A stretch of 64,000 bases of DNA from Ginglymostoma cirratum (taxonomy: Eukaryota). The notes beneath the pieces are model-generated. The model was given only the letters and a program-made list of their open reading frames with translations, searched no databases and was not told where the DNA came from. The stretch's first letter is position 1. Each line of letters begins with the position of its first letter. Of the stretch, positions 16,322 to 63,219 are shown piece by piece. The DNA lies in the NCBI GenBank assembly GCA_024137785.1, contig JAHRHZ010000111.1, forward strand, positions 13,456,888 to 13,520,887, read 5' to 3'. Both the position numbers and the translations under genes were made by a program.

Positions 16322-16780
16322 CTACTCAGTAGAATGTGTTGTCAGTCCTAGGTACTGCCTCAGAAATTTGCTATATCTCTTCTGATTGGTCTGTCTATTC
16401 AAATTGCTCCAGTTCCTAACTGATTTTCTGACTCCCATGAAGCCTCCATATCTTTTCTGGAAACTTCTGTTGCCCTCTGCAACTTCTCTGATATGATGTT
16501 TCCTCTCTGTCTCTCGTTGACTGTTGTCCATCTCAGATATGGTCTCATCCCCATCATCATAGGCGTGCACCACACTGCCATTGGGCCACATGGTCTTCAT
16601 GGTTTGAAGAAAGCCCCAAGTGTTTGCCGAGTTGATTCTACTATTGCTTCCAGCATTACCAAAAGACAGGCTTCTGGTTTGAGATGTAGTTACACCCACA
16701 GGTGATGCTGAGGCGATTTTTCTGCAGTCTTCCCAAACGACAGAGGATATAACTTTCCCTTTGCACTGTTGAATACAGAC
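16322..16780 (-). CDS. PNOC-like: Prepronociceptin-like opioid precursor, second coding exon (152 aa + stop)
   Basis: Acceptor gttgttttag at 16782-16781. Reads VCIQQCKGKVISSVVWEDC...QKR-YGGFMGVRKSVRNWSNLNRQTNQ-KR-YSKFLRQYLGLTTHSTE*, the nociceptin + nociceptin-II layout. Confidence 0.95.
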   Translation of the reverse strand, partial: VCIQQCKGKVISSVVWEDCRKIASASPVGVTTSQTRSLSFGNAGSNSRINSANTWGFLQTMKTMWPNGSVVHAYDDGDETISEMDNSQRETERKHHIREVAEGNRSFQKRYGGFMGVRKSVRNWSNLNRQTNQKRYSKFLRQYLGLTTHSTE

Positions 16781-16952
16781 CTAAAACAACAGGAAAAGTT
16801 ACTCAGTGATTGAATGTACCTCTGATTCCTTTAAATTAATAATTTGATTATATCAATCTACAAGTTTTTGCATTCTTATATAGGACTGGGTGTAGACCAT
16901 TATCAAATTAGATCATGACCTTACCCTGAAGTCACGCCTTTGCTTCACCTCC

Positions 16953-16973
16953 TCCCCCCCCCCCCCCCCCCCC
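16953..16973. repeat. C21 homopolymer (G21 on the PNOC-like sense strand)
   Basis: Read directly from the sequence. Confidence 0.9.
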
Positions 16974-18017
16974 GCTTTATCCAACAATAATCGAACAACA
17001 AAACAGAAAATGCAGCATAAACTCAGCAGGTCTGGCAGCATTTGTGGAGATACAAAGGATTACCATTTCAAATCCTATTACAACTTCTTCAGATAGGAAA
17101 TATCCTAGCAGTATTAGTCTTGAAAGATCTAATTGATCCTAGCATCTGGTGCCTTTTGGGAAAGATTTCCAGATTTGCATTAACCATTGTTTGAAGAAGT
17201 GCTTTCTAATTTCACTTATGAACAGTTTAACCCAACATTAAAATTGTTTCCTGGCTCTGGATTCCCCAATTAGAGGGAATGGTTTCCTCAATGTGCCCTA
17301 TTGAATAATTTTATAATTTAAACCCCAAAATCAGATAAACCCCTTAACAATCAAAAATCAAGGGCATCTAAATCAAGCTTTTATAAAATATTATAATTTA
17401 GACCTGGAAGTTTAGTATGATTCCAGTAAATATGAAACCCAAGGAACGGCATTCTCAACTGAATAGTTCTTCAGATGAGGACAATCAAAGCTTTGTACAG
17501 ATCACACATAGTTCTGGTGTTTGTTGTGACCATGGAGCTCATTACTAATTACATGTTAGTGAACAGTTCCAGAAATGACGCTGATGGAACTGATCATACT
17601 TCCACTAAATCGATCCATCGACTGTCTGAAGGAGTCAAGCGCCACACTTTTCATCCTGAACCTAAAGTCCTGTAATTCAGTCCTGCACTCCCACCTTCCC
17701 GCCAGTGGTTGGTGCTAGTGTACTTTGTACAGCCCATACTTGTTAACGTATTCTGAAAGGCTTACGCTGTGGTAGCGCTGTGCTTTGTCTGTCAATGAAA
17801 TTTCTCGGTCCACAGTGAGCCCCTATGTATCTTCTGTTTACGCCTCCTTGGTCTGTATCAACCTCAAAGAAAACAATTTCCCCTTATCTAATCTCGCCAA
17901 CCTTACAATTCGTTACACAATGGATTACAGATCAGATAATACCGTGAGAGACAACCAGTGACAAAACCCCATAAATACAGATTAAAATAGGCATGCAAGA
18001 GGGATACAAAGACTCAC

Positions 18018-18143
18018 CAGTACATTGAAGTGTTGGCGCTGATAGAAGAGTTTGTGACAGGTGAGGCACTCAGCCACACAATCTCCCTGCGAACAAGGAA
18101 CCAAATAAAAGAGCAGTACTAGAGATAGGAGACAGATCTTCAT
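18018..18143 (-). CDS. PNOC-like: Prepronociceptin-like precursor, first coding exon: signal peptide and Cys motif (MKICLLSLVLLFYLVPCSQGDCVAECLTCHKLFYQRQHFNVL); whole exon 18163-18018
   Basis: Not in the ORF track (42 codons). Acceptor ttttttttctttttcag (18165-18164), ATG 18143-18141, donor gtgagt at 18017. Phase-0 join completes the six-Cys opioid precursor domain. Confidence 0.93.
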
Positions 18144-18545: not shown

Positions 18546-18571
18546 AAAAAATTTTTTCTGATGAAGGGTCT

Positions 18572-18971
18572 NNNNNNNNNNNNNNNNNNNNNNNNNNNNN
18601 NNNNNNNNNNNNNNNNNNNNNNNNNNNNNNNNNNNNNNNNNNNNNNNNNNNNNNNNNNNNNNNNNNNNNNNNNNNNNNNNNNNNNNNNNNNNNNNNNNNN
18701 NNNNNNNNNNNNNNNNNNNNNNNNNNNNNNNNNNNNNNNNNNNNNNNNNNNNNNNNNNNNNNNNNNNNNNNNNNNNNNNNNNNNNNNNNNNNNNNNNNNN
18801 NNNNNNNNNNNNNNNNNNNNNNNNNNNNNNNNNNNNNNNNNNNNNNNNNNNNNNNNNNNNNNNNNNNNNNNNNNNNNNNNNNNNNNNNNNNNNNNNNNNN
18901 NNNNNNNNNNNNNNNNNNNNNNNNNNNNNNNNNNNNNNNNNNNNNNNNNNNNNNNNNNNNNNNNNNNNNNN
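18572..18971. other. Assembly gap (400 N)
   Basis: Run of N. Confidence 0.99.
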
Positions 18972-18997
18972 AGACCCTTCATCAGAAAAAATTTTTT

Positions 18998-19025
18998 CTG
19001 ATGAAGGGTCTAGGCCCGAAACGTC
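18998..19025 (+). ncRNA. Minimal type I hammerhead ribozyme motif
   Basis: CUGAUGA-A-GGGUC/UA/GGCCC-GAAA-CG-UC: intact core, stem II and GUC cleavage triplet. Confidence 0.7.
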
Positions 19026-27498: not shown

Positions 27499-30400
27499 AC
27501 ATATCCAAGGCTGTTAAAACACAAAGATAGAGTGCACTGTAAGTAATGAAGATGACAATATAAAATTACAAAGTGATGTGGATCGATTAAGTATCATGGG
27601 CAAACCGTGACTGATGGCTATAGGTAAATGTGAGATCATCCTCTTTACATCTAAAAATGTCAGAACAGGCACATTCTGGATGGTGAAATGTGACAAACAG
27701 AAATGGTCCAAAGCGACCATGGAGAGGGGGGACACCTCCTTTGGGTGTCCTCTCAGATCACTGTTGTCATGCAGGGAAATGTAACATCCATGTTGTGCTC
27801 AGCATGATTTCACCAATAGCAATGAAATCAATGAGCAGATAATCAATTTTTAATTATGATGGTTGAGAGATAAATGTTCGTAGGAAGAACTCCTCTGCTG
27901 ATCTTCCAATAGTATCATGGGATCTTTTGCATTTCAGTGAACAGAGATATGAGGGCCCTGGTTCAATGTCTCACCTGAAAAAATGGCACAGAATTAGCTA
28001 ATAAAATGCTGTACTGTAATCATTATTGTGCTTCTTTGGTATTTAGAATATAAAAGTAAACAAATGTGGAAATTAATCCAGAAGAAACTGAGTTGCATTA
28101 AAACATTTGTACTTAAACCAAAAAGTTCCAGACTTGGACCCAGTTCTCAAAACTCTGTCCCACATGGACTGTGATTTTATACACTGAATGACTGTTGGGC
28201 TCAATCCATTTATTTCCCCAATGATCTTTATTATTCAACTAGCTGCAAACCATTTCATCTTTTGGAGATCGCATTAGAACTGATGCCAAATTTCCTGCTT
28301 TGTTGTAAATATCACAAAGATAGAGAGTCTGCAGGAAGGTCACTGTCCCAAGCATTGCCAGCATTACATTACTAAGAGGTTATCACTGTAAACTGACTGC
28401 CATATCATAATCGTAAATGTGTTTTCACCCTTTGTACAAGGCAGTTATGAAGGACATTTCCAATAAGGCTGTTGGTGGAAAGCCAGACCAACAGAGCAAG
28501 AGTTCATTTTCAGCAGTGCATAGTCTTTCAAATTGTTATTAGTTGATGTTTAGTGGGAGTTTGTTTAAATGATTGCTATGGTGGGATTAATAATCTTATC
28601 CTTCAGGCCCATTCTACATGCCCAGTGTACCAGCCATTTTCACATGGCATTAGATTTATTTTTGAAAACATATTTGGTTACAGCCTCCATCCCTATATCT
28701 CAATTTCTGCCCTTACTGAATATAACTCTATCGAGCTTTGTCTTAAAAGTCCCAGTTGACTCAGCTCACACTGTTGATGTTATCGACCAGACCTCCACAA
28801 TAGAAAACAGAAAATGATGAAATTAACTTGCATTTGCTCCACATCTCTCGTTGCCCTAGGCTAACAAAAGCTTATCCAGCTTTAGCCTTGAAAACTCCAA
28901 CCCATTCCCAGCATCAACAGACTTTTTTTATGGGGGAGATGGTGAAAAAGTTTAAGATTTCTATTATTTTCTGTGTGATAAAATGCTTCAGAATTTCACT
29001 CTGGAAAGGCCTTACTCAAATTATAATATTGTGTCTTCTAGATTCCCAACCAGAGAAAATACTGTACTCCATACATCATTTAAAATAAATGAATAGATTT
29101 CATCTCATCTTTCTAAACTCCACAGAATACAAACCAGGGAATGCTGCCTATATTCAAAATTATCATCAGTAACATCCACAGACTCATTCTATTGTTAATT
29201 GTGACACCTGCTGAAACAAAATAACCAGTAGGTCAACAACATTGTATTTAGTGCAGCATTGCAAAGAAACTTAAAACATACTATTGGGTTGAAATAACAA
29301 TTCAATGAATGAGGGTTGAAAGAGGAGAGAATATTTCTAAATCTGAAGCTCTGGTACTCTATCTGAATGTCTGGTCTTTATTCTTGACCCCGTCTCCATC
29401 TTTCAAATTGCTGTATCCAATAGAAGCCTTGTCAAAGAGAGCTGACGGGATGTAAAAGTGCAACAGCAGGGTGTAGCCTCGTGGTAAAAGCAAATGGTAC
29501 TTTTTCAACGTGAGCTTTCTACAAATGCCTGCACCTCTTTTATTGTTCATATCTCGTCTCTTTATCCAATTTCGATTCTTTAGCCTTCACCGTTCTGGTC
29601 TATTTTTCACACCTCTGCCGTCTTTCTTACCTACCTCTCCCTCTCTCTGCCCACTGCTGTTATCTACATTTGGCAGTTCCCCGGGACGGGACACTGACCC
29701 TCAGGTGAAAGCTGTCCACGACAGAGCAATTTGCACAATGGGGGACATGAGAGGGAGCTGGACCGTGGGACCGGGATGTCTGCACAACCAGATACAGACA
29801 ACTCGGTAAATACACACACACACACACACACAAACTGAACTCAGAACCAGATTGCACACCCTCTGATCCAAGCCCCCGCCTCTCCATTTCTGTTTGTACC
29901 TTCTTTGTTATCTCTTTAAACGTTATTCTGCGATTTAATTGGGAACTCGGTGGGCTCCCGGTTGCAGTGGCTCATGCCCACACCCCCTCCTTGCCCTCAT
30001 TGAGGGAGCTCTCCCCAGCCCTCCCGGACTATAGGGAAGTGAAGGGTTAGACAGGGGCGAACCGAGCTGGGAAATGCGGCTCTATCACCTCCCTCTCAGC
30101 AACTCTACAAGGATTGAAGGAGACAGAGAGGGACAGGGACCTGGGGAAAAGCGGGGGCTCGGGCGGAGGGTAAGTGTTAAACGGACAAGTTAAAGGTCGC
30201 GGGAGGGGGTAGGAGTGGATAAATGAGAGGGATTAAACGAAATAGAAGTTCTGCGGGATAGGAAACCTGGCGACTTCTCCACTAAGAGAAAGAAGGAAGA
30301 GAAAAAGTTTCCATTAGGAAGAATATCGGTTAAAATAAACCAATAGAGACGAGAGTTGGTTCAAAGGATGGAGGCAGTGAGAGTGGGAGCAGAAACAGCG

Positions 30401-30513
30401 AGGAACTGGTAGATGCAGGGAGCCCAGACTCTCACTCAGAAACAGCAACAAAGTTTAAACCGAACACCTGATCTTTATCGGGAATGAGAGGGAGACTTGA
30501 GTAAATCTCCTAC

Positions 30514-30710
30514 CTGAGAATGTCCGCCAGTGACTGGGTAACTGCTGTTGTGAGCTCTTCCTTCTCTCTCTCTCTCTCTCACACACACAGAGCAAGATTC
30601 GTCTCCTCAATCCTAAAGCAGGGTTTCACACTGTCCTTGTGTTTAACTCCCCTCTTCTGATATACCCTGACTGGACAGACAAACCAGACAGTCAGCAAGC
30701 GAGAGCACAC
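30514..30710 (-). other. PNOC-like: Probable non-coding exon 1 (5' UTR) of the PNOC-like gene
   Basis: Donor CAG|gtagga at 30514/30513, no ATG in the exon, directly downstream of TATA-like and CCAAT motifs. Opioid precursor genes typically have an untranslated first exon. Confidence 0.55.
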
Positions 30711-30730
30711 CCCTTCCAGGAAGAGATGCA

Positions 30731-30801
30731 TTTGTATAAGCAGCTTCCTGGAACCCCTCACATTGGCTCAGATGACTGACACATCCTCACTCCCTGAGTC
30801 A
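30731..30801 (-). promoter_or_regulatory. Putative core promoter of the PNOC-like gene
   Basis: Minus-strand TATACAAA (30738-30731), CCAAT (30766-30762) and AP-1 site TGAGTCA (30795-30801), correctly ordered upstream of the candidate exon 1. Confidence 0.5.
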
Positions 30802-30817
30802 CACAGGCACTGTCTCC

Positions 30818-31410
30818 CGACACTTACCTGTCACTAATCCCCGACATGACCCTGACTGTCAGTCAGTAAAACTCGCCCCAGTCACTAACCCCGACAGCTA
30901 TTCCGCCAGAGTCACTGACCCCTCTCCTAGCCCACAGTCTCTGATTATCACTAATAATTCCCAAAGTCACTTTGTCACTATCCATCCACACAAAGTCATT
31001 TAGTTAACTACCAACGATTACTGACTGACCCCAACACTCACTCAGTTACTGACTCAGCCAATGACTTAGTCACTAAGTCAGGGAAACTGACAGTCACTCA
31101 GTTTGTAACTTCCAACAGTTACAAGCATGTCATCAGTTTACTAACAGGTTACTCAGATTGCTAACACCTCACTCTAACATAAACATACAATAGTTACCCA
31201 TTCACTAAATCCTAACAATAACACATTGCTCACTCCCTGATCTCTTGACAGTCACTCTGTCACTAACCTGTCACTCCATTACACACCCCAGTCACATGGG
31301 TCACTAACCTGTTGCTTTGTCAATAAATCCAAATGGTCACCCGGGTCACTAATCTGTCACTCTGTCAATAACCCAAGACAGTCACTCAGTCACTCAGCTG
31401 TCACTCTAAC
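30818..31410. repeat. Degenerate GTCACT-based tandem repeat
   Basis: About 15 GTCACT copies plus variants, all in the same orientation. Confidence 0.7.
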
Positions 31411-35084: not shown

Positions 35085-36170
35085 AATATCAACTATCAGT
35101 TGTGTCTCAGATAAAAACAGTTTCGCCTCCAAGTCAAAGGTTGCGGGTTCAAGTCCCATTCCAGGGCTTAAGCACAAGGGTCTTAGCTGATGCTCAGCTG
35201 AAAAGTAACGTAGAAAAATTGTAGATAGGAGCAGGAGTACGCTATTCCACCCCTCGAGCCTGGTCCACCATTCAATATGATCATGGCTGATCATCAAGCT
35301 CAATATTCTAATTCTACTCTCCCCCAATATCCCGTTAGCCACAAGAGCTATATTTACTTCCTTCTTGAAAACATGATATTTTGGCCTTACCCCTTTCTGT
35401 GCTAAATGAATTCCATTTGCTTACTACCAGGTGAAGAAATTTCTCCTTGTCTCTGTCCTAATAGGTTTACCTCTTATCCTTAAACTATAACCCTTGTTTG
35501 TGGATTCCCCCATCGGGAACATCCTTCCTGCAGCTAAACTGTCTAGTCCTGTTAGAGTTTTATAGGTTTCTTTGAGATCCCCCCACATTCTTCTAAACTC
35601 CAGTGAATACAATACAATCTCTCCTCATGTCAGTGCTGCCATCCCAGAAATCAATTCGCTAAACCTTCGTTGCACTCCTACTATATCAAGAACATCCTTC
35701 CTTATAGCAGGAGGCCAAAACTGCACACAGTACTCCAGGTGTAGTCTCACCAATGCCCTGTATTATTGCAGCAAGACATTGTTGTTCCTGTACCAGAATC
35801 CTCTCACTATGAAGTATGAACATACCACTAACTCAGGCAGAGGAAATGCAGCACTGTCAGATCTTCCTTTGTTCGGATGAGTGGCTAAATCCAGACCCTA
35901 CCTCCCCTCTCAGGTGGACATAAAATGATTCAATGTCGTTACTTTGAATATTAACAGGGGAAATTATCCCAGGAGCCCTGGCCAATATTTGTCCCTTGAT
36001 CATCACAAAAAAATTATCTCATCATTATGTCGCTGTCTGAGAGCTTCCGTTGTGCAAATTTGTTTCCATTTCCTACAACATAATTGTGAATACATTGCAA
36101 GAAAGTACTTCATCAGCTGTGCTTTGGCACATCCTAATTTTGTGAAAGGCACTAACTACATACAAGATTT
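35085..36170 (+). mobile_element. Deu-type SINE interrupted by a minus-strand CR1 3' fragment (~35205-35820)
   Basis: B-box ggttcaagtccc; Deu-like core ttcggatgag...ctctcaggtggacataaa...cctggccaatatt. Confidence 0.7.
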
Positions 36171-36574
36171 TCTTGTCTCAATCCTCATTCATCCAACTTG
36201 TTTAAAATGGCTTCCAATTAACCCAGATTTTGAATCTGAAATCCACAACCTCATCTTTAAACCTCATCCATATGTTCCTTTCTCTTGCTGTAATCGCCCA
36301 TAACGCTACAAACACCTTTGAGCTCTCTGTTCCTTTGATTCTGGACTCTTCTGCATTGTTCAATCTCTTCACATCATAATTGACAGCCACGCTTTCACCC
36401 ATCTAGCTCCTGAACTCTGGAATACCTTCCATTAGCAACTCTGCTTCCACTATCCCCTCTTTGCCTTAAAACACTCCCATTAAAACCGACCCCTCTGAAT
36501 AACCATTTTGTCACTTTTCTTATTAATTCCTCTTTTGGTCCAATCAGCAATCTATGCAAAATACCTCAGGTTGT

Positions 36575-37570
36575 TTTCCAGCACTGAAAGCTCAATGTGA
36601 TTATATTTTACTGTTGTTTCAGTAATATTTAATCTTCAGTATTTGTTGAATGTTGTGAAACTGGAATGGATTATTGAGCAATGGAAATCAAATGCAGTGA
36701 TAATTCTCACAGAACTTCAAAAACCTATCTGCCAGGATGCATTACCACATTTGTAGTTATTATTCCACGCCATTAGGTTTGACCATTTCATTGACCACTT
36801 TGATAAACCGTGTTTTAAAAACGTCAAAAGAAATGAACATGTCAGCAGGTGCAGTTTTTGCACATTATTCTTTATGCCTTTGAAACATGGTAAAATAGTC
36901 AGAATTGTGGCTCATCTGTCGCAAAAGTGGGTGCAAAGAAAGATATTGCATCAAATGAACTGTGAGTGAAATTATAAGACCACGTAAATTTCTCCCATCA
37001 ATTTCCAAAAATATGAACACACCGGATAATGTGGTGAATATCCGCTAAACAAAACCCAATCTTTAAACTCTCAGACAATTTCTTCTCGGCTCATGACCAA
37101 TGCTGGCAAATTAGGCAGTCATTCATACTTATACAATGTCCTCATCAGTTCAGAATGCCCTAAATGAAATACTTGTGAAGTGCAGTCACAGATGTGAGAC
37201 TGGGGAAAAGGAAGCCCCATCTACAGCTGACCCCATTACATTGAGCTAAAATTGGTAACCAGCTGTCTTGGATGTTGTCAACACAGTTACCTGGCCACAA
37301 ATGTTTCCCATGGAGCTGGACATACAATATTCCTCAGAGTGGTCTGTGTGTCCTTAGGATAATGTGCTTTCCAGGTCCTCACAAAATGCACTGCAGTGAT
37401 AGTGGCTTTAGTTTTCAGGATTCTTCGTTACTTCCCAAGTTACTTTTGGATTATGACAGATTGTACCCAGGCGCTGCACCCACATCAGCAGGAAATTAAA
37501 AATATCCTGATGCATGATGTGGAGTCACTTTTTTTAGCATTCTTAAGATTTTCTTAGGGGTTACCTTTTA
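36575..37570 (+). repeat. Arm A of a long inverted duplication
   Basis: Reverse complement of 42675-43830; core 36628-37011 differs at ~10 of ~380 positions by hand count. Confidence 0.92.
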
Positions 37571-37829
37571 ATTCTCACTAATTCCTTTATCGGGTGGTGC
37601 AGTCACATAGCAGCATTATCATCTGCAGTGGACATCTGGGATTTTTGGTCTCAAACAGCAGCAAAAGTTGAAGAATTCAAGAACATCCTCAAAAATCAAC
37701 ATTAAATGTAAAACCACAAAATAAAGGAAAGCATTAATATCAAGATAGGACAGTATTTAGATTGGCACATGATAGCAGTCCTAAGTTAGCAACAATTTAA
37801 TTTTTAAAAATGCTGACAAGAACAATACG

Positions 37830-38285
37830 TAAAAAAACCATCACTAGATTCACGACAAAAAGCATCCTACCTGGATGCATCACAATCTGGTTTGGCAAAT
37901 GTTTATCTCAAGACCACAAGAAACTACAGAAAATTGCAAACACAGCCCAGTCTATTACACAAACCAGGTTCCCATCCGTTGACTTCATCTACACTTCCCA
38001 CTGCCTCTGGAAAGTAACAACATAATCAAAGACACCTCTCACCAAGTTATACTTTCTTCCACCCTCTTCCATTGGGCAGAAGACATAAAGGTTTGATTAC
38101 ACATATGAATAGAGTCAAGAACAATTTCTTCCCAGCTGTTATCAGACTTTTGAACGGACCACTCAAATGCTAATTCTGACCTCTCTCTCTGCATCTTCTC
38201 TGTGGCTGTAACATTGCACACTGCACTCTGTTCTGCCACCTTGACGCACTTTTAACTGTATCTGGGTGCATGTGAAAGCAATAAA
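37830..38285 (+). mobile_element. Rex1/Babar-like LINE 3' fragment
   Basis: SILPGCITIWFGKC..QDHKKLQKIANTAQSIT matches the recalled Rex1 RT C-terminus. Confidence 0.75.
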
Positions 38286-38839
38286 TCAACCAATCTTATG
38301 ACTGGGGAGATCGTAGATTATCTAACAGAGTCACTGCACTTGGAACAATTTATAGTGTGGCATGCGACAACACACACACGTGAATCTTCATGAAATTAAC
38401 CTGTTCAGGAATGCATTATCCTATTTACGGTGTTATTCATAACAGTAATATTCATACAAAATGCTATTCTTTGTTTTCTACTCAGGGGAGTCTCCTCTCA
38501 TCTTGCCACCTCTCCCCACACCGTCCCCCAACCACCTCTGTCTCTCTCTGTCTCTCTCCCCTTGCTCACCAGTGTTGCTTCTCACTTGCTCTCCAGCCTT
38601 GCTACCTCAAACAGTGGCAGAGTTACTCACCCTTTCTCTGCATTTTCCATTCAGAGGCTACTTCCCTCCTGCGTGTGCTGCTGATAGGCTCATGCAGATG
38701 CTGGAGTCAGAAGTGATACAGTGTGAAGCTGGAGGAACACAGCAACTCAGGCAGCATCAGAGGAGCAGGAGAGTCGATGTTTTGGTTCAGGACCTGATGG
38801 GACATGGGTGATTTCGACTCTCTGCTCCCGGATATTTTG

Positions 38840-39900
38840 AGTGTTGGCCCAGAAAAAAAAATGGACAATTACATTCAAAAAATGTTTTGTTTCTATAAGA
38901 AGAGCATCGAGGTTTAGTCAATCGTTTCAGTTGGATATACTTCAGAATTTGATAACACCATAAGACTGTTGTGCACAATGAATATGAGTTAGTCCCATAA
39001 AAGGCAAATAAACATCTGAAAAAGAAACATATCAGACTTTTGTTCAATTTACTAGAGAAAAGGAAATGCTGTTTGCTGGACAGTATAGGCCTATGAAGCT
39101 GGGAAGAATTTTAATACAATATTCATTTGGGAATGAGGTCCCACCTATGCAACCATAAAGCTTCTATATGAATGGAGGCAGATGATTACAAACCAGCTCA
39201 AGAGCAGACAGGTGGTAGCAAACCTTTCTTTGCAAACCTAAAAGAAGCTGTCGAGGTGATGAACAGAACATGAATTATAGTGAGGGTGATAACAGAAGTG
39301 AAAAGACAGATGCACCTCAGAACAGTAAAAAAAAGTGTGAATTAGGCCTGAGTTGAGGTAACAATATACTGCTTTTGCCATGTAAAAGACAAACCATGTT
39401 AAAGCAGACTTTGTGAAAATGCAAGCTAAACTCTTGGATATGTCTAGTGGTTGTTCTAGAAAATTTTGTATCAGTGAAGCTATGAGAACTGGGAACCATC
39501 TAATGTATTATTTTGTGGACGTAGATCAGAACATAAATGATCATGGGAGTTTCATATTTGAGGGTAAAATAACTCAATTTTTGTCTGTTGATGGGCCATA
39601 AAATCATTACCGTTAAAGGTACAGGGTTGGATTAAGCACTACTGTTAGCAAAAATTTTCTTTCTAGGAAGTGTGCTAAATAAAAGTGTTTCATACAAGAT
39701 ATCAACTGAAATTGTTTAATTATTGTGTGGAATGAATCTGAACTATCCTTTAGTCATTTAGCCAGTTATTATGGGAGTGGTGCCCAACGTGCCTGATAAT
39801 AAAGTCAACATTATCTTCGGAAAGACTCCAGCAGGTGATGGTGGGATGCTGCTGAACATTTCCACAGGATCTATTGAGATTATTAAGGCTAAATCTGTAT
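38840..39900 (+). mobile_element. Highly decayed Gypsy/Gmr1-like LTR retrotransposon gag-protease
   Basis: Broken frames give YELVP, QTFVQFTREKEMLF, CFC..HVKAD (zinc knuckle), KGTG..ALLL (DTG protease site) and VIMGVVP..P..VNIIFGKTPAG. Confidence 0.65.
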
Positions 39901-40332
39901 TTTCAAGGTAAATGGATATGGGAAAAAAACCCTATGTTGTTTCTGAATCTGTTGTGGAGGATAATGGTTTGACCGTCGAGTTGACAGTTCTAAACTCTGA
40001 AATTGAAAAGATATTTAAATCTCAGACTGAGAACAAAGAGTTAACAACCTCTGGAAATGAATTGATTCTGTCTGAATCAAATTTGCCCTCAAGTCCTAAT
40101 GCACAGGTATCAAATCAAAATTCAAGAGCCTTCAAGTCTAATCAAAACAAAATGACTTGGCTGGAACTAATGTTGTTACTATGGGACTCTAAAGATGTAT
40201 TGAAGTCTTAGAACACAAATTAAAAATAACAAAGGGGTGCATCTTTTGCTTAGAAAGAAATGCATAAAGTTCATGGTGAGTGTTAAGCTGAGAATACATA
40301 ATAACTTTACAGCTCACTAGAAACAAGTGTAA

Positions 40333-42360
40333 GGGGCTCAATCTGACTGTAAATCAGATGTGTCATTTTCATTGAGTTTCATGGAGGGTTTCTCTCCACG
40401 TGGCTCAGAGAGGTTTCTCACGCTATCTTCCCAAACTCATCTCATAACTTATGCCCCATGCCTGTGTGGCAATGCTGTGTCCCTGTTTTCCCACTCATTG
40501 CAGGTAAAAGTATTCACCGCTGTTGAGACATCCCAGGATCCCTGGTGACGATGTCATCTTTAAAACACAGCAACATAGAAAATAGGATCAGGAATGGGCT
40601 ATTTGGCCTTTCGAGCCTACTCTGCTATGCAGTACGATCACGGGTGGTCATCCTACTCCGTACCCTGTTCCTGCTTTCGCCCCATTCCCTTTGATCCCTT
40701 TAGCCCTAAGAACTGCATGTATCTCCTTCTTGAACACAGTCATTGTTTAGCCTCAACAGTTTTCTGTGGCAGAGAATTCCACAGGCTCACCACTCTCTGA
40801 GTGAAGACATTTCTTCTCATCTTAGTTCTAAATGGCCTACCCCATATCCTTAGACTGTGACCCCTGGTTCTGGATTCCCCGGCTGTGGGGAATATTCCTG
40901 TGTTTACCCTTTTTTGTCCTGTTAGAATTTAATAGGTTTCTGTGAGATTCCCCCTCATTCATTGCACTCCCTCCACAGCCAGAAAGTCCTTCTTCAGACA
41001 AAGAAACCAAAACTGTGCACTGTTCTCCAGGTATGGTCTCACCAAGACCCTGTCCATTTGTCATTCCTGCTCCTGTACTTAAATCCTCTCACTATGAAAC
41101 CAACATACCATTTGCCTTCTTCACTTCCTTAGCACCTGCATGCTAAATTTCAGCAACTGGTGTATAAGGACACCCAGGTTTTGTTGCACATCCCCCTTTC
41201 CCAATCTATTGCCATTCAGATAATCTGTTTTCCTGTTTTTGCTACCAATATAAATAACCTTGCTTCTGTCCACATTATACTCAATGTGCCATGCATGTGC
41301 CCACTCACTCAACTGGTCCAAATCACACAAACTATCTCTACATCCTCCCCATAGTTCACCGCACCCCACCCAGCTTTGAGTCGTCTGCAAAATTGGGGAT
41401 ATTACATTTAGATCCATCATCTAAATGTTTAGTATATATTGTAAATAGCTGGGGTCTAAACACTGGTCGCTGCATGCCACTCAGGAAATTATCCATTATT
41501 CTTATCCTTTGTTTCCTGTCTGCCAGCCAGTTCTCAATCAGTGTCAGTCCACCACTCCCAATCCCATGGGTTTAATTTTACATGTGAGACCTTATCAAAA
41601 GCCTCCTGAAAGTCCAAGTAAACCACATCCACTGGTTCCCCCTTATCAACTCTACTAGTTCTCCATCACATCCTGCTACTGGTTTCCAAGGGTTCTGATG
41701 TTAATTCTTTTATATCAGACTCTTAGAATTTTCCATACAACTGATGTCAGGCTGACAGATCTATATTTCCTGTTGCCTCTCTACCTCCTTTTTTAAATTG
41801 AGGAATTGCAATTGCTACACTTCAATCTTTTAGGAACTTTTCCAGAGTCTGGAGAATCTTGAAGGAATGACCAGCAATGCATCCAGTATTTCTCAGTCCA
41901 CTTCCTTAATTACCCTGGGATGTAGATTATCAGGCCCTGGTGATTTAATCCCATCTATTTCTAACAAAACACCATTTGTTAATACTGATTTCCTTTGGTT
42001 CATCTCTCACACTGGACCATCTGTTCCTAATATTTTTAGGACGTTATTTGTGTCATCCTTTGGGAAGACAGTCTCAAAATATGTATTTAATTGGTTTTCC
42101 ATCTCTTTGTTGCCCATTATAATTTATAAAGAAGACTGTTGTGCACCCAGTCAAGTGCTGTCATTCTGAAACGGCCCTGCATGGCTCCCTGTGAATTGCT
42201 CCAGGCGTGGCAAACAAGGGAAAATTACTGTAAGTTTTGCAGGCAGTGACCTAGACGACCTGGTGTATGGGGTGGTGCACAACAGAGTTGACCTCCTATC
42301 CCATTACCAGCAGAGAGGCTACAACATCAGACCCTGTCAGCCCAGTCCAATGTTACCACC
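40333..42360 (+). mobile_element. Harbinger relic (terminus plus Myb/SANT N-terminus at ~42190-42330) split by a minus-strand CR1 (~40565-42125)
   Basis: 40333-40455 resembles the reverse complement of 51075-51190; FAGSDLDDLVYGVV resembles the Myb-like start near 50950. Confidence 0.5.
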
Positions 42361-42674
42361 CTTGCATCATTTACGGGCTGAGAAGATACCACCCAAGAAT
42401 CATCAACCATCATTGGATCATCAACACAACCTCAACAAAGATCTTAAAGCATCAAAAGGGGATTTTTCTCAACAGAGAAACGAACTGCTGACACCAAAGA
42501 AGACAGTGCTTCTCCTGGGAATGAACACTGAAAGTTTTCATCTTGGGAGGTAACAAGAAATAGAAAAATGTACACCAGCATTTAGAGAGGAGGAAGGCCA
42601 TTTAGTTGTTTGTCTGGCTGAGGCACTCTTTATTGAGGTGGAAGATAAAAAATCTACACCTGCAACAGGGAACA

Positions 42675-43830
42675 GAAAAGTAACTCCCGAGAAAATATTG
42701 AGGAGTCCTCAAAAAAACAAGACTCCACATCATGCATCAGACTACTTGCTGATGTGGAAGTTGTTGCACAGCCTGTGTGTAATCTGTCATAATCCAACAT
42801 TGACTTGGAGATTAGCAAATGATCCTGGAAACTAAAGCCAATACCATTGCTGCATATTATGTACAAGGACCTGGAAAGCTTGTTACTCCAAAGCCTCACG
42901 CACCTCTTTGAAGATTACATCCCTAAGAAACATTGTATGTTCAGATCCATGGGAATACCAGCACAGCTGGTTACCAATTGTAGCTCAATATGACAGGGTC
43001 AGCTGTAGACTGGAGATAGTAGGAAGTGCAGATGCTGGAGAATCTGAGATAACAAGGTGTAGAGCTGGATGAACACAGCAGGCCAAGCAGCATCAGAGGA
43101 GCAGGAAGGCTGATGTTTCGGGCCTAGACCCTTCTTCAAGCTTGGCCTGCTGTGTTCATCCAGCTCTACACCTTGTTATCTCAGCTGTAGACTGGGCTGC
43201 CTCTTTCCCTGTGTCACAATAGTGACTGCACTTTGATTTGCTGTAAAGTACTTTGGGACATTCTGACCTATTGAGGGCATTGTATAAATGTAAATGACTG
43301 CCTATTTTGCCAGCATTGGTCATGAGCTGAGAACAACTTGTCTGTGGGCTTTATGCTGGTGGTTTTTGTTTGGTAGATATTCAGCGTGTTTTTGGAAATT
43401 GTTGGGAGAGATTTACGTGGTCTTATAATTTCACTCACTGTTGATTTGATGCAATATCTTTCTTTGCACCCACTTTTGCGACAGATGAGCCACAATTCTG
43501 ACTATTTTACCATGTTTCAAAGGCATAAAGAATAATGTGCAAAAACTGCACCTGCTGACATGTTCATTTCTTTTGACTTTTTTAAAACACAATTTATCAA
43601 AATGGTCGATGAAATGGTCAAACCTAATGGCGTGGAATAATAACTACAAATGTGGTAATGCATCCTGGCAGATAGGTTTTTGAAGTTCTGTAAGAATTAT
43701 CACTGCATTTGATTTCCATTGCTCAATAATCCATTCCAGTTTCACAACATTCAACAAATACTGAAGATTAAACATCACGGAAACAATGGTAAAATATAAT
43801 CACACAGATGCTTCAGTGCTGAAAAATAGT
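42675..43830 (-). repeat. Arm B of the long inverted duplication, carrying an extra insertion at 43014-43180
   Basis: Reverse complement of 36575-37570. Confidence 0.92.
43014..43180. mobile_element. Palindromic Penelope-derived insertion with 15-bp target-site duplication
   Basis: TCAGCTGTAGACTGG at 42999-43013 and 43181-43195; same family as 18413-19421. Confidence 0.8.
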
Positions 43831-46800: not shown

Positions 46801-46984
46801 CCACCCTGAATGGTTCCTGCAATAACATGTGCTGTATCATTGTCGCAGTCATATGAAGACAATGCAGATGAATTCAAGAGGTTCGAAGGCATCAGAAACA
46901 CAGCAACCTCCAGCTGCTGCCTGACACCCTGTTTGTGAAGAAGTCGCAGCAGAAACTCCTCTCAGGATGTGCAGGGGTTTTAAA

Positions 46985-56255: not shown

Positions 56256-56898
56256 TTTTGGCCTACAATGTTTGGGTTTAAATCCCAGATTGATGAAGAA
56301 CCACATTCAAATTTTCCTTATAGATATGAACCCTAGCACAGAGGTAAGGACAATACCTTTGCACCACAAGAGTTAATTGAAATCTTTTGGCTCTCTTTTG
56401 GATGGAAAACAATTCTTGCAATTGGTTTCCAACCAATCAAAAATGAGTTTGTACTATTGGAGTTGTTATGCACTAAGACAATGAGGGCCAGGTGGAACCT
56501 TTTTAAGGCAGGGAGCGAGTCACAAAAACACAGTATGGAAGAGGGGGAGAAAGGATTAGGAACTTGGTTGAAAGATGAAATGACCTTTTTTTTAAAGAGT
56601 TGGGGGAAATTTTAAAAGTACAATGTGCATTGAATGTATTTGATGTTATTGTCCCATGTTTATTAGATAAGTTATTGTTTGAGGCATTTAACCATAGATT
56701 GCTTCTGGTAACAGAGACCTTTCCCACAGATACATGGGTGATGGAAGGTTAAATTTCAACCTGTGGTTTCATTTTCTTATAATATACCTAACTTAGTCAT
56801 ACTTAATTTAGTGGTGGGGCTTCAGGATTAAAGCAGTTGAGTTTCAGGAGTTGGCGGTGATACGAGTGGGAGGTACCTGGGTGAAGAACTGGATTGAG

Positions 56899-57444
56899 AT
56901 GGAGAAGCTATGCCACTATGAGATTGTTGGGGAACTTGGCCAAGGGAGTTATGGGACTGTGTATGAAGCAAGACACTGCAAGAGCCAAGTTAAAGTTGCT
57001 TTGAAGAAAGTGTTGTGCAACTCTCCTGAATCTTCAGAACTGGCTCTGCAGGAATTCTGGGCACTGAGCAGCGTGAAGAAGAGACACCAAAATGTGATCT
57101 GGCTTCATGAGTGCATCCTGCAAAAGGAGGAGATCATCCAGAGGATCAAGAAGGCTCCTCAGGAATCAGAGAGCCATTTGCTCCTGATCGAGACTTGCCT
57201 GAAGGGGAAGTGTTGCTTTGACCCTAGGATGTCCCATGTTTTGTGGTTTGTGATGGAGTTCTGTGATGGGGGTAATCTGAATGACTACTTGCTGAGCAGA
57301 CATGCTGATAGCAGGATGAACAATCGCTTCATACAACAGCTCAGTGCTGCTGTGGTGTTCCTGCACCTCAACCAGATCATCCATCGAGACCTCAAACCAG
57401 ACAATGTCCTCATTGCCAACACTCCAACTGGACCTCTTTTAAAG
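56899..57444 (+). CDS. STK35/PDIK1L-family Ser/Thr kinase, first visible coding exon (182 aa)
   Basis: GQGSYG loop, VALKK, family signature ELALQEFWALSS, LWFVMEFCDGG, HRDLKPDN; donor AAG|gtgagg at 57445. Confidence 0.93.
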
Positions 57445-57654
57445 GTGAGGAGTTGAAGTTATTCTTTATGCAAAAGGGTAAGTACACATTTGCATTAGTA
57501 CTTCAGCTGTTATGGCACATTTGGCCCATTGTGTTTGTGCAGGTTCTGTTACCTAGTGTCAGTCTCCTGTCTGTCCCCATATTCCTGCACGCTGAATCAT
57601 AAGTTGGATCTAAAGGCAATGTCCTCTTGAATGCCCCTCCTTTTTCTGACTTTA

Positions 57655-58555
57655 GGATGTTGGAGCTGGGTCTGTTTTTGTCATTTTATCTAAATGAGTT
57701 TAGATGAGAATATAGAAAGCATGGTTAGTAAATTTATGGATGATACCAAAATTGGTGATTTTAGTAGACAGTGAAGAAGGTCATCTAAGATTACAAAGGG
57801 ATCTTGATCAATTAGCTGAATGGGCTGAGGAATGGCAGATGGAGTTTAATTTGGATAAATGCAAGGGATTACACTTTGCTAAAACAAACAAGGACAGGAC
57901 TTGTATAATTAATGGTTGAGTCTTGGGTAGTGACCTAAGGGTTCAGGCACATAATTCTTTGAAGTTTGTGTCACATAAATAGGGTGGTTAAAGTGTGTAG
58001 CACGTTGCTGTCATTGCTCTGACGGTCTAGGAGTTGGGATGTCCTTTTGAGGTTATACAGGACATTGGTAAGGTATCTTCTGCAGTATTGTCTAATCTTG
58101 GTTGCCCTGTTAGAGAAAGGATATTAGACTGGAGATGGTTCAGAAAAGATTTCAGGATGATGCTGGGAATAAAGGGCTTGAGTTACAAGGAGAAGCTGGG
58201 ACTTTTTTCACTAGTGTAGGAAGTTGAGGGGTGACTTTGTAAATATCTATACCCCTCATGACCTTATAGAAAGTGTCTTATTCCTAGGGTGGGGTACTTT
58301 CAGATTAGGGGACACATTTTTATAGTGAAAAGAGAAAGATCACGTGGCAATTTTTTTTCTTTAAACAGTTGGTTGTGTGGAATGAACTTCTAGATGAAGT
58401 GGTGGATGTGGATACATTTTTTTTTGTACAAGGTTTAAGACACTTAAATATGTACACGAATAAGAAATGTTTGGAGGGATATGGGCCAAGTGCAGTTAAG
58501 GGGGATTATAGTCAGTATGGACTGGCTGGACTGAAGGCTCTGTTTCCAGACTGAG
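57655..58555 (+). mobile_element. CR1 3' fragment in the kinase intron (further CR1 pieces at ~51895-52275, ~52820-53240, ~58710-59210, ~62290-62795)
   Basis: KFMDDTKIG, WAEEWQMEFNLDKC. Confidence 0.8.
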
Positions 58556-60599
58556 TGTTTCACAACCAATAAAGTGTAAACACTTTTCCTTTATGAAGAA
58601 TAATAATAATCTGTGCAAAACAGACTCTTAGACAACATGAGTGACCAAGCAATTTGTTTGCCATATTGAAGTATCAATATTATTCTGGGTTGTCCACTTC
58701 CTATAAGTCCAGAAGAAATAAGGACAGGAGGTTGCTGCTCAGCCCATCCAAGTCTGTTCCACTATTCAATCAGATTATAGCTGATCTGACATTTCTCATA
58801 ACCACTTTCTTGCCCATTACCTGTAACCCTTGATGCCCCTACTGATCAAGAATCTGTGTATCTCAGCCTTAATTACACACAAGGACTCGATGACCAGGGG
58901 ATTAAAATCCCTTAACCCTGAGGGAAGAAGTGCTTCCTCATCTCAGTCCCAAATTGCTGCCCCTTTATTCTGAGACTGTGCCCCCGATCCTAAATCGTCC
59001 CATGAGGGGAACTATCCTCAGCATTTACCCTATCAAGCCCCTTTAAGAATCATCTGTTTGTTTCAATGAGATCACCTCCCATTCTTCTTAACTCCAGTGA
59101 GTAGAGTCCCAACCTCTTTGGCCTTTATTCATAAGACAATCTGTCCAGTACCAAGGATCATTCCTAGTGAACTGTGTTGAACTGCCTCCAATGAAATGAT
59201 ATCTTTCTCTTGCAAATAATGCAGCAGTATCTTTTACATCCAGCACTGTCAATGTGGTGACTGGATCTCCAAAATGCAGTGTTTCACAGTCCAGAGATTA
59301 TGCATCGTCCTGTCTAGATGGGATTGAACCTATGACCTTGTGAATAACGTACAAATGAAGTCATTTTCTTTCTGAGGATTCACTCTAGCTTTTAAGGACG
59401 GTGTCACTAACCTACTGACACCATTACCTATTATCCATTCAGACCTCAGCTACTGATTAGTATCTAATTTTCCATTAGGATGAAGCCTCGCAATCTTGAA
59501 CCTGAAATGTAATTCTGTCTTCACCCTGATTTTTTTTTCAAAAACGTCTGACCTCATGAAATTAAATCTGTTTAAAGTGCAACCATTTGAAATTCTTCTG
59601 AGCTGTACTAACAGATCTGTTGCTAGTGCACAATCCTGCTCCATTGTAGCCCCAGACCTATCCTGAAAACCCAACAGTCGCTCTTGGTGTTTTCTGCTCT
59701 TTTTAAATGTACACTTTTAACCTGAATTGTTGCAGAATCAGCTGGAAAATAACTTTGCCTTGATACTTACTCTGGCACAAACTTTTCAGACCACACTTTT
59801 GATTTACTTAGGCTAGATCTGACAATCCTTCCTCTTTATATATTGCAAGCCTTGAAAAGTCAGTACAACTTTAAACATTCAATGTTGTCATAATATTTAA
59901 AAAGTGGAATATTCTGACACATTAAGAGGTGTAGATTTTACAGTGGGTCTTATTGAAAAGTCATTAATGGTTATCATTTAAATGGTATTACAATTTGGAA
60001 GGAAATTGGTTGACCAGCTTGCAATCAGCTGAGACAGACGCCGACTTTTGAATGTTGGCTGCAATAGCTTCTCTAAATTGACTGTGCAGCAGATGTAACT
60101 ATTGCAAAAAAAAACTCGGGTCATTTTTTTTTTTGGATGAAAAAAATCAGTAGTTTAAAGACTGTGTGCAAGCAGTCTAATCCAGGATCCTGCTCTTGCT
60201 GTGAATTTCAATAGGGAGTTTGCATTCGAGCTCCAGGAAGCAAAGTTCACAATTCATGTGCAATTACTAAGTGAATGAACAGAACCTCAACATCCTCAGG
60301 GGCTAAGAATTAGAAGTGGAACTGGGCTCAGATGAGACACTAAAGTACAAGGAGAAACAAAAATGAGGAGTTGCAAAGATAGAGGGCTGAGTGACATTTT
60401 TGATTTTAATCTGAAGGGGAATAATCAGGCTCTGTAAAACCTAGAGCAAGGATGCTGTTGTGTGAAGAGGCCACAAATCTGAGTTTATACTTTTAATCTC
60501 TAGTTACCACACTTAGTGGGGAGGGTTCTCCTCTGGAGAGAAGTTAGGTTTGAGGGAGAGAGAATGGGATTGTTTATGTGGGGGTGGGGATGGGGTCAC

Positions 60600-61600
60600 T
60601 TCCACTCAACCAGGACCATCAAGCCAGGAGATCAACTCTGGCTCCATGAAGAGTGCAGGAGGGCATGCCTGAAGATGAGGGGTCAACCTGGTTAAGTTAC
60701 CAAACATCACTACTTGCACACCAAACAGTTTAAGCAGCAAGTGATAGCCAAATGATCCCAAAACTACCAAATCGATCTTAAAGCTCTGCAGTCCTGTCAC
60801 ACGTCCAGTTATGAATGGTGGTGGACAATTAAACAATATTTGGAGAAGGAAGCTCCACAAATCTCCCCATCTTCAATGATGAAAGAGCCCCAGTATCTGT
60901 GCAAAATAGAAGACTGAAGTATTCACAGCAATCTTCAACCAGAAGTGCTGACTGGATGATCCATCTCAGCCTCCTCTGGTAGTCCTCAGCAGCACAGTCT
61001 TCAGCCAATTCAATTCACTCCAAGTGATATAAGAAAGGAATACTGCAGCAAATAACTCCTCTCCTCCAAAGCCTGTCTGCCATCTACACTGCACATGTCA
61101 GGAGTGTAATGGAATGCTTACCACTTGCCTGGATGGTGCAACTGCAGCAATATTGAGCTTGACACCATCCAGGACAAAGCAGCCCACTTGATTTGGCACT
61201 GCATCCACTCCCTCCATCACCAATGCTCAATACACACTGTTTCTATCTATAAAATGCACTGAAGAAGTTGACCAAAGATCCTTAGACAGCACCTTCCAAG
61301 CCCATGACTACTTCCATCTTGAGGGTAATGGGCAGTAGATACATGGGAATGCAACCTCCCGCTTTTTCCAAACCCACAAGCCATTCCCCATCCTGACTTG
61401 GAAATATATCACTGTTCCTTCACTGTTGCTGTGTCAAAATCCTAGAATTCCCTCCCTAATGTCATTGTGGGTCAACCCACAGCACGTAGACTGCAGCGGT
61501 TCAAGAAGGCAGCTCACCACCACCTTCTCAAGGGCAACTAGGGACAAGCAATAAATTCTGGTACAGCCAGCAACACCCACGTGCCATGGGTGAATAGAAC
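60600..61600 (+). mobile_element. Non-LTR retrotransposon fragment, same family as 22450-23462
   Basis: LDTIQDKAAHLI motif and shared 3' tail. Confidence 0.7.
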
Positions 61601-62883
61601 ACTTACTATAGGCAACTGCTCAAGCAGCTGCCTCCTGTGCTGTAATAATTTTGATTGGATTCAATTTTCTGCTGTATCTACTTTTTTCAGCTTAGCAGTA
61701 AATGTTGTCTGTTTTAGCTGATTGTTACCATTGAGCACTCACTCAATGCATGATGGACAATTTTTGTCAGGACATGCAATGGAACTGAAGAACTAGAAAT
61801 AATTTTAATTATAAAAATGCTAAAGGTTGCCAGCTCTTTGTTTGTTTACAGATGCTGGAAATCAGCACTGCTTTTCAGTCCTCACTGGAGGTTGAGGTGG
61901 TGTTAATCTGTCCTACGTCATCATTGTTTGTAAACATTAGCTTTTCAACCACTTTTTTAATAGAAAATGTTTAACTTTCAGATTTGGTACTGACTAATTG
62001 AGTCTGAAATTCACTAATTGTCAACTGTTGAAGCAGACTGTGACAGTATTTAAAACCGGATTAGATGGGTGATGGAAAGAACAAAGGGGTATAAGAACCA
62101 AGCACTGTAGTCGTAGGAGGTTAAACACCAACATGGACCTGCTATTTCTGTCCTGTAACTATGTTCCCCTCAATTTTGCTTCACTCATCCATAATGTGAA
62201 ATCTAGTAGCTTAAATCACAGGCCCATCTGCTAAAATCCTGAATCTATTAAATATCTGATTATGTACAAATTCAGGATGAATCTTACAACTATAGAGCTG
62301 TACAGCATTGAAATGGACTCTTGGTCCAACTCCTCCATGCTGACCAGAGATCCTAAATTAATCTAGTCCCATTTGGCCCAGATCCCTCTTAAACCCTTCC
62401 TGTTCATTCCCATCCAGATGCCTTTATAAAGGTTGTAATTGTACCAGCCTCCTCCACTTTATCTGGCAGCTCATTCCATACATGCACCACCCTCTGAAAA
62501 AGTTGCCCTTTGGGTCCTTTTTTGGTAAATCTTCCCCTCTTGCCTTTAAACCTATGCCCTCTACTTTTGGACTCCATTACTCCAAGGTAAAGACCTTGTC
62601 TATTCACCCTATCCATGCCCCTCATGATTTTGAAAACCTCTATAAAGGTCACCTCTCAACCTCCAATACTCCAGGGAAAATTGCCCCAGCCTATTCAGTG
62701 TTTCCCTGTAGCTCAAACCCTCCCATCCTGCCAACTTTCTTGTAAGTCTTTGAACCCTTTCAAGTTTCACCGCATGCTTCCTATAGGCAGGGAGACCACC
62801 TTCCTTTTAAAATAAATAACTAAACACTACTGGATCCCACGGATCCCCATCACCCAACTCTTGGTATCTGGTCAGTGAATTAG

Positions 62884-63219
<336 letters not shown>

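Follow-up and report, generated by a model that had tools for sequence, protein, structure and literature searches.

Genes and repeats in the window

The window, which is the whole 64,000-nucleotide stretch of Ginglymostoma cirratum DNA that was analysed, contains an opioid precursor gene on the minus strand (16325..18143), a kinase gene on the plus strand (56848..63219) and an inverted duplication. The opioid gene comprises coding exons near 18018-18143 and 16325-16780, a signal peptide and a Cys motif. Its match to PF01160 (E=3.6e-4) lies below the cut-off of that family, and by its likeness to known peptide sequences the gene is taken to be PNOC-like. The kinase gene has a PF00069 domain and exons near 56848-57444 and 62995-63213, and is probably STK35L3. 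In opossum and frog, PNOC flanks STK35L3 according to the available part of PMC2737284.

The most CpG-rich stretch of the window, 29501..30830, holds candidate first-exon donors at 30170 (+) and at 30827 or 29630 (-), chosen by motif score. The plus-strand site ranks 6 among 1646 GT sites, and an acceptor-like site near 56847 precedes the first coding exon of the kinase gene. The original prediction placed the duplication between the two genes, and this location is uncertain, as the motifs suggest that the repeat may fall within intron 1 of the kinase gene.

Structure of the two arms

Self-BLAST of the window pairs arm A (36574..37568, plus strand) in inverted orientation with arm B (43826-42676, minus strand) around a spacer of ~5.1 kb. 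The core of the arms, 36628..37010 (+) in arm A and 43390..43772 (-) in arm B, has 10 mismatches in 383 columns of the global alignment, zero gaps and a K2P distance of 0.027. The outer flank has 11 mismatches in 54 columns, and the inner flank has 97 in 495 with 17 gap openings and a K2P distance of 0.23. This confirms the predicted near-identical core between flanks about 75-80% alike with indels, the observed mismatch level in the flanks being ~20%. The contrast between core and flank mismatches is strong (Fisher p=7.5e-17), and the lowest count in any best 383-column window of 5000 permutations was 27 mismatches, against 10 in the core.

Half of the ten core differences are clustered at 36792..36822 (P=0.023 for five or more in 31 bp), whereas the overall clustering of all ten is not significant (P=0.07). 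This cluster is probably an unconverted patch between conversion tracts. At the inner edge of the core (37011..37032), 18 bp are absent from arm B, and a patch of intermediate identity with 12 mismatches in 86 columns follows at 37075..37160. Two related species, here termed organism A and organism B, have an orthologue of arm A, and orthologue pieces of arm B occur in organism A. Arm B of organism A has 21 gap letters across 36881-37118, and judging from contig ends its two arms appear identical over 37089-37125.

Neither arm contains a tandem repeat. Arm B carries a later insertion, as predicted, which is a hairpin repeat at 43014..43180 bounded by 15-bp direct repeats at 42999-43013 and 43181-43195. 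It is 87-89% like the hairpin repeats at 18418-19428 (self-BLAST) and makes arm B 182 bp longer. Both arms also carry a fragment of an old dispersed repeat (37148..37243 in arm A), with a depth peak and loose ends in three of four sequencing runs, and since it is present in both, it would have been inserted before the duplication. The fragment may resemble Deu-domain SINEs. The spacer (37569..42675) consists mostly of repeat relics according to self-BLAST and nhmmer, some of them assigned to putative families. These relics include a hairpin-repeat copy at 38693-38794 and a LINE remnant at ~40570-42130, which splits one element into 40359-40463 and 42190-42368. A Pfam scan at E 0.05 found no match in the 12 spacer frames among 15 frames scanned. 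Elsewhere in the window, a 400-N gap lies at another hairpin.

Composition of the core

An nhmmer search of the window found no further copy of the core, in line with the earlier statement that it matches no other repeat there. Contig pieces and depth indicate that the core is single-copy in organism B and two-copy in organism A, so it is not a young transposon of high copy number. The arrangement of inverted arms around a spacer with many transposon relics would suit an old DNA transposon with the arms as its terminal inverted repeats, or two insertions of a young high-copy element as the core. Such an origin is nevertheless extremely improbable in view of the one or two copies per relative with no further copy in the window, the old repeat fragment common to both arms, and the lack of any Pfam match above cut-off, any Rfam match and any protein match other than a spurious one.

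The prediction that the core holds no convincing open reading frame agrees with a Pfam scan of 12 frames, none of which gave a match above cut-off. The same 12 frames lend no support to a decayed LINE reverse transcriptase, an origin that was considered. Among the matches listed, none of the reverse transcriptase fragments of the window significantly matches the core. One frame across 36601-36969 has a single stop. A near-open frame is not rare, as 103 of 339 window tiles do as well at a count of 2 stops. Its sole match among 1.84 billion proteins is a six-fold tandem repeat with ~27 bits per single alignment and was rejected as spurious. The core indels of organism B would shift reading frames. 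Rfam gave 0 matches in the whole window, and the fold of the core (z=-0.34) indicates no stable structure. A 25-base core word had 0 matches in a metagenome collection, and no RNA run is among those listed as containing core words, which has no bearing on expression.

The E-boxes CAGGTG and CATCTG noted earlier are present, but E-boxes are no more frequent than chance would give (5 seen against 3.1 expected, P=0.18). Only arm A has a perfect TGACCA-N6-TGACCA repeat; arm B has another letter at 36792, and in organism B a 1-bp deletion at 36794 falls inside the repeat. A spaced hexamer repeat of this kind turns up in 62% of 500 shuffled sequences.

Arm differences in related species

The differences between the arms were dated against contigs of organisms A and B, using 40 of 150 differences of the relatives and 27 of 169 contig pieces in their presumed order of listing. 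The window side of the comparison is the assembled sequence, and the best share of core words among the listed runs is 0.31. Organism C has just two low-depth contigs of 106 bp and 31 bp and was left out. The conversion argument thus rests on two informative relatives.

Both arms are present in organism A. The duplication therefore predates the split of the window lineage from organism A, as the arms are 23% apart and the species distance is 4.3% (30/704). The arm divergence also exceeds the distance to organism B about threefold. Within the core, the window arms differ by 2.6%, which is less than the species distance to organism A. Among the core sites listed, window arm A has a letter unlike arm A of both relatives at 10, and window arm B has that letter too at 8 of them, whereas beyond the core only 1 of 12 such listed sites is common to window arm B (p=0.0015). 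This is the evidence that bears out the predicted arm-to-arm gene conversion.

Seven of these core sites in window arm A carry B-type letters (36637, 36638, 36681, 36683, 36931, 36939, and 36952), and at all seven, arm B of organism A already has the window letter. The letter at 36692 is common to both window arms and absent from both arms of organism A and from organism B; it is a new mutation found in both window arms. The letter of window arm B at 36660 is that of arm A in organism A, which requires at least one transfer from A to B, and arm B probably also carries the arm-A letter opposite 36748. The transfer is non-reciprocal, since the two window arms agree at 36660 and at each of the seven B-type sites. 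These sites show that, after the split from organism A, the core was copied non-reciprocally and patchily, mostly from B to A and from A to B at one or two sites.

The arms of organism A are likewise more alike in the core, with at least 16 core differences and at most ~12% divergence. They collapse to one contig at 36824-36910, which has one letter not listed for organism B. The collapsed contig and this private change suggest separate conversion in the lineage of organism A.

A two-way mosaic could also be produced by mixed consensus calling if reads of both arms were combined in assembly or polishing, and the 400-N gap at another hairpin of the window would fit with this. A partial artefact of this kind is very unlikely. 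At the switches 36627/36637 and 36638/36660/36681, the distance to the following diagnostic site is 9, 21, and 20 bases, too short for a k-mer path switch. Arms 4-12% apart map uniquely, and ten differences survive, one of them isolated at 36708. The independent contigs of organism A have both copies, with the 87-bp collapsed stretch between, which speaks against an assembly collapse.

In organism B, one core copy was seen in the orientation of the window, with about 92% of the run covered and records filtered. Short second pieces near 37239 and 37467 were not counted as arm B because that run has many 40-60-bp matches at 80%. The missing second copy carries no weight by itself. The orientation seen bears on the idea that the 5.1-kb spacer inverts recurrently by exchange at the core, whose identity would be a by-product of crossover. 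The geometry is suitable, crossover and conversion have common intermediates, and human HsInv0209 offers a parallel in the available part of PMC3961182. The recurrent inversion put forward in the original prediction is not shown, however, and is quite unlikely: one contig of organism B runs from the left flank through the core and inner flank A into the beginning of the spacer, in the window arrangement, and crossovers swap letters between arms, whereas both window arms carry identical letters. Because the contigs of organism A break within the core, the orientation seen in relatives is that of organism B.

Possible constraint on the core

Organism B retains 2 of 39 core words, which equals the expectation at background divergence (P=0.53), and its core has indels at 36794 and 36961. 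An extra divergence of 1% or less in the core of organism B is rejected (P=0.011 or lower), while 1.5% gives P=0.036 and 2% gives P=0.08. In the window lineage the core changed 3 times where 6.9 changes were expected (P=0.09), which hints at mild constraint. By these counts, clear conservation of the core between species is not evident; strong constraint is rejected, and mild constraint would fit with P=0.08-0.09. The proposal of a duplicated enhancer under strong constraint is not supported, given the near-background core divergence, the indels and the single copy seen in organism B. Nothing found in the sequences points to a conserved-enhancer role for the core.

Conversion may be real and yet sustained by moderate purifying selection on a regulatory core, in which slower change keeps the copies able to pair. 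This is unlikely. It draws on the shortfall of changes in the window lineage, the greater similarity of the organism A arms in the core, the persistence of the core beside two genes, a precedent in the available part of PMC3924837, and CAGGTG and CATCTG E-boxes that carry no difference among the differences listed. Against it stand the word retention of organism B, with the limits on extra divergence given above, and its core indels and single seen copy. In addition, core words occur only in organisms A, B, and C among the runs listed, the motifs are at chance level, and three of the five E-boxes hold a site that differs in relatives.

Proposed history of the locus

The sequence comparison makes it probable that the locus is an old inverted duplication whose core was homogenised by arm-to-arm gene conversion after the species split. 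An ordinary non-coding piece of ~1 kb, with an old repeat fragment inside, would have been duplicated in inverted orientation long ago. Breaks in one arm may then have been repaired with the other arm, at a distance of 6.4 kb, as template, each tract covering some tens to a few hundred bases. The core looks young because the copies have overwritten each other, and conversion would keep returning to it because it is the last stretch alike enough to pair. The flanks may have escaped through indels, insertions, and substitutions. This process probably involves little or no selection. The tract sizes and the indel boundary agree with the available parts of PMC3924818 and PMC3924837, while the yeast cases in the latter, where conversion lasts long only in sequence under purifying selection, count against a neutral reading.

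Two further proposals give the pairing of the arms a function. The donor-like site at 30170 (+) and the acceptor-like site near 56847 would place both arms in one intron, such as the first intron of the kinase gene, where they could pair as RNA in one spanning transcript under selection for pairing. This is highly unlikely, as the gene model is drawn from motifs, no second arm was seen in organism B, 6.4 kb separate the core arms, and DNA-level conversion already explains the identity. It is also very doubtful that selection maintains the core as a long-lived conversion hotspot, with both arms in an STK35L3-type first intron transcribed from a CpG-rich promoter common to the PNOC-like gene, and with arm pairing as RNA or DNA tuning both genes while the sequence drifts. 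If true, this would be a structure conserved without its sequence and overlooked by conservation scans.

Under homogenisation by gene conversion, the locus illustrates a trap in which near-identical non-coding copies mimic a constrained enhancer yet stem from conversion, and two relatives are enough to separate the two. Conversion persists in both directions, probably in two lineages, in a remnant of 380 bp while the rest is ~20% diverged. As a locus of a non-model vertebrate, it can be used to gauge how long tracts are and how duplicates escape concerted evolution.

Comparison with known systems

Literature searches, which cover few subscription journals, found no title on this locus among the matches listed for shark gene conversion and inverted repeats, and nothing on PNOC in elephant shark. 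Among the matches listed for duplicated enhancers and conversion, no title describes such a case. The locus is a further case of a known process, interlocus gene conversion. As in the concerted evolution described in the available parts of Fawcett and Innan 2011 (PMC3924837) and Mansai et al. 2011 (PMC3924818), substitutions are common to paralogues within species, orthologue divergence is near neutral, tracts measure 50 to several hundred bp, and substitutions, indels, and transposon insertions end conversion. Unlike the duplicates in those parts, the window duplicate is gene-free and has mostly escaped, with only a 383-bp remnant homogenised.

The intergenic inverted repeats of Caenorhabditis (the available part of Zhao et al. 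2007, PMC1803023) are similar in that arms are closer within species than orthologous arms, and in that the structure is kept in some lineages and degenerate in another. Their arms lie beside pairs of paralogous genes and, in two examples, have spacers of 126-414 bp between them, whereas the flanking genes of the window are unrelated and its core arms are 6.4 kb apart. Mammalian Y and X palindromes (PMC3723533 and PMC8981503, in the parts available) also undergo arm-to-arm conversion in an inverted duplication. Their arms are large and over 99% identical, in contrast to the arms of 1 kb, 80% alike outside the core, at this PNOC-STK35L3-type locus. The human HsInv0209 and FLNA-EMD inversions (Aguado et al. 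2014, PMC3961182, in the part available) share diverged inverted duplications, a short near-identical patch and a spacer of a few kb. In HsInv0209, the inverted duplications are 94% identical and a 782-bp patch of 99.9% identity is the likely breakpoint. The window differs from these human inversions in that no inverted arrangement was seen and organism B has the window orientation.

Structure of the inverted repeat

Self-BLAST of the window matches 36574-37230 with 43826-43181 (86%) and 37220-37568 with 43009-42676 (69%), both in inverted orientation. In the global alignment of the arms, the core (36628-37010 in arm A, 43390-43772 in arm B) differs at 10 of 383 columns and is free of gaps, whereas the outer flank has 11/54 mismatches and the inner flank 97/495 with 17 gap openings. 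The near-identical core and the much more diverged, indel-bearing flanks of the original prediction are thereby confirmed. The arm-to-arm K2P distance is 0.027 in the core and 0.23 in the inner flank, a contrast far above chance (Fisher p=7.5e-17), and the lowest permuted window has 27 mismatches (5000 permutations) against the 10 observed. The core is bounded by an 18-bp gap at 37011 on one side and lies near the outer limit of homology on the other. A stretch of 31 bp contains five of the 10 remaining differences (P=0.023, against P=0.07 for clustering overall) and is probably an unconverted patch. The later insertion expected in arm B consists of 167 bp from a hairpin repeat, bounded by 15-bp direct repeats.

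As predicted, the core has no second match elsewhere in the 64-kb window. A high-copy young transposon as its source, the reading set against the prediction, is opposed by this result and by the core's failure in the copy-number test. No Rfam match was found, the fold is not unusual (z=-0.34), and the 12 frames scanned gave no Pfam match above the cut-off. One frame, 36601-36969 (+), runs for 123 codons with just one stop. It was rejected as coding since it has no credible protein relative and is frameshifted in organism B, a related species represented by public sequencing runs; the absence of a convincing ORF stands. The motifs previously singled out are unremarkable: there are 5 E-boxes where shuffling gives an expected 3.1 (P=0.18), and a spaced hexamer repeat, the kind of motif that the TGACCA repeat represents, turns up in 62% of 500 shuffles.

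Gene setting and spacer

An opioid precursor gene lies to the left, on the minus strand, and a plus-strand kinase gene to the right. At 16325-16500 (-) the precursor comprises only one peptide that begins with YGGF, the sole YGGF/YGGL in a six-frame translation of the window, and after it another that begins with YSKF. We take these peptides to resemble PNOC, and the pair to be PNOC-like. The locus is probably PNOC-STK35L3, because PNOC flanks STK35L3 in opossum and frog, as stated in an excerpt of PMC2737284.

An acceptor-like site precedes the first coding exon of the kinase. CpG richness in the window peaks at 29501-30830 (highest at 29.5-30.5 kb), a stretch with donor-like sites at 30170 (+) and at 30827, 29630 and 30513 (-). 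This stretch may serve the two genes as a shared promoter or as overlapping head-to-head promoters, in which case the first intron of the kinase would span 26.7 kb. Because of the acceptor-like site and the plus-strand donor-like site at 30170, the inverted repeat may, at the level of motifs, be intronic. Selected pairing of the arms inside that intron is very improbable.

The repeats in the window would fit a shark, as stated in the original prediction. The spacer consists largely of transposon relics. A dispersed element (paralogue 50839-51173 (-)) is split into 40359-40463 and 42190-42368 by a LINE insertion at ~40570-42130; its right half resembles a Harbinger Myb-type protein start. A decayed coding-like stretch at ~38900-40200 (+) has no Pfam match and resembles a Gypsy-type retrotransposon relic. 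Beyond arm B, a decayed Harbinger-like transposon occupies ~44150-47750, with DDE_Tnp_4 just under the cut-off (E=6.4e-5) near 47630-47690. Arm A is adjoined on the left by an old, weakly self-complementary element (35838-36153; paralogue 12215-12529, E=7e-10). Separately, 18417-19126 comprises a perfect 155-bp inverted repeat around a 400-N gap, with the same 40-bp palindrome at both gap edges. This is probably one hairpin element with its apex assembled twice, and therefore the gap may be false.

Copies in related species

Public runs were searched with 36596-37010 as the query and 39 sampled words; 24 runs were listed, of which 15 share part. The share is highest in organism A (0.31) and is 0.05 each in organisms B and C, the first two being related species. 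Since no listed run reaches half of the words, the window's own species seems absent and the comparison covers relatives only. Contigs of 4 of the 24 runs were aligned to 36380-37800 (arm A only), where contigs of both arms stack. The site comparison uses the best 40 of 150 differences, 12 of 18 indels and 27 of 169 pieces, apparently ranked by contig support; therefore, sites common to both relatives should be nearly complete and single-relative sites mostly unseen.

Organism A has two copies, on which two samples agree. For copy 1, records 11/19 come in from the left flank and records 17/25 and 18/26 pass gap-free into inner flank A; copy 2 runs off at 36574 (12/20) and has 21 gap letters over 36881-37118 (16/24), compared with 20 in window arm B. 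Differences from the window are 15/364 at 36380-36743, 11/238 at 36881-37118 and 30/704 (4.3%) at 37096-37800. In organism B a single contig spans 36380-37600, differing from the window by 89 substituted letters and 36 gap letters; depth stays flat over the core, and indels lie at 36794 and 36961. No second copy was found in its filtered records, covering all but ~8% of the run, even over the well-matching patch 37075-37147. Spacer inversion through the arms is possible in principle by analogy with human HsInv0209, as described in part of PMC3961182. However, the flipped arrangement was not seen, and in organism B the left flank, core, inner flank A and spacer follow one another as in the window.

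Gene conversion

Diagnostic sites are those, among the differences listed, at which window arm A is unlike its counterpart in both relatives. Inside the core, window arm B carries the letter of window arm A at 8 of 10 such sites, against 1 of 12 outside it within the arms (p=0.0015), which bears out the suggested arm-to-arm gene conversion; the outside sites are private arm-A mutations. Organism A arm B already has the window letter at 36637, 36638, 36681, 36683, 36931, 36939 and 36952, which shows copying of arm B into arm A. At 36692 a letter absent from both relatives stands in both arms of the window. Copying in the A-to-B direction is seen at 36660, where the window's arm B carries the letter found in organism A arm A; 36748, on a contig not assignable to an arm, is probably a second case. 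Identical letters in the two arms at these sites mark the process as conversion, not reciprocal exchange. The list shows just two core changes private to arm A (36708, 36809) where 6.9 would be expected (P=0.03), so copying is recent on the window branch. An assembly artefact behind the core identity is unlikely, since each switch point has a further diagnostic site 9-21 bases away and the structure is also found independently in organism A.

The core tract was homogenized before this window-lineage conversion. Between the arms of organism A there are no fewer than 16 core differences (9 substitutions and 1 deletion from the list, 3 contig breaks, plus the count of 8 against 3 in records 13/14), or at most about 12% by contig totals, against 20% in the window flanks. 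Over 36824-36910 these arms collapse to a single contig, which differs from the window once, at a site absent from organism B's listed differences. Given the apparent ranking by support, we read this as a private change in both organism A arms, hence a separate conversion there.

Constraint on the core

Given its listed differences, the organism B core retains 133 of 385 words intact, yet only 2 of 39 sampled words were found. Simulation assuming random sampling rejects extra divergence of <=1% (P=0.011 or lower), leaves 1.5-2% marginal (P=0.036-0.08), and fits the ~4.9% background estimated from contig totals (P=0.53). As a strongly conserved element the core thus fails on substitution rate; strong constraint is excluded, and the proposed duplicated enhancer is unsupported as an element under such constraint. 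Slowing of up to about two-fold is compatible with the data. Window-lineage core changes number 3 against 6.9 expected (P=0.09), and in yeast, according to sections of PMC3924837, long-lasting conversion is confined to constrained sequence; both count against an unconstrained reading.

Mechanism and comparison with known systems

The comparisons demonstrate an old inverted duplication and a non-reciprocal, patchy exchange that is confined to the core and postdates the species split. From established knowledge, breaks would be repaired with the nearby inverted copy as template, copying tracts of 50 to several hundred bases between arms, the range reported in the portion consulted of PMC3924818. 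Tracts would stop where substitutions, indels and insertions upset pairing, as in the account in PMC3924837, available in part. High core identity would promote further conversion, so that recurrence is explained without selection. No publication on this locus was found in the literature searched (main texts, few subscription journals). The inverted repeat is real and accounted for by a known process: the locus behaves as a duplicate under interlocus gene conversion and shows the features tested. The maintained inverted repeats of Caenorhabditis offer a parallel, as far as an extract of PMC1803023 describes them, and so, at a much larger scale, do the palindromes of sex chromosomes.
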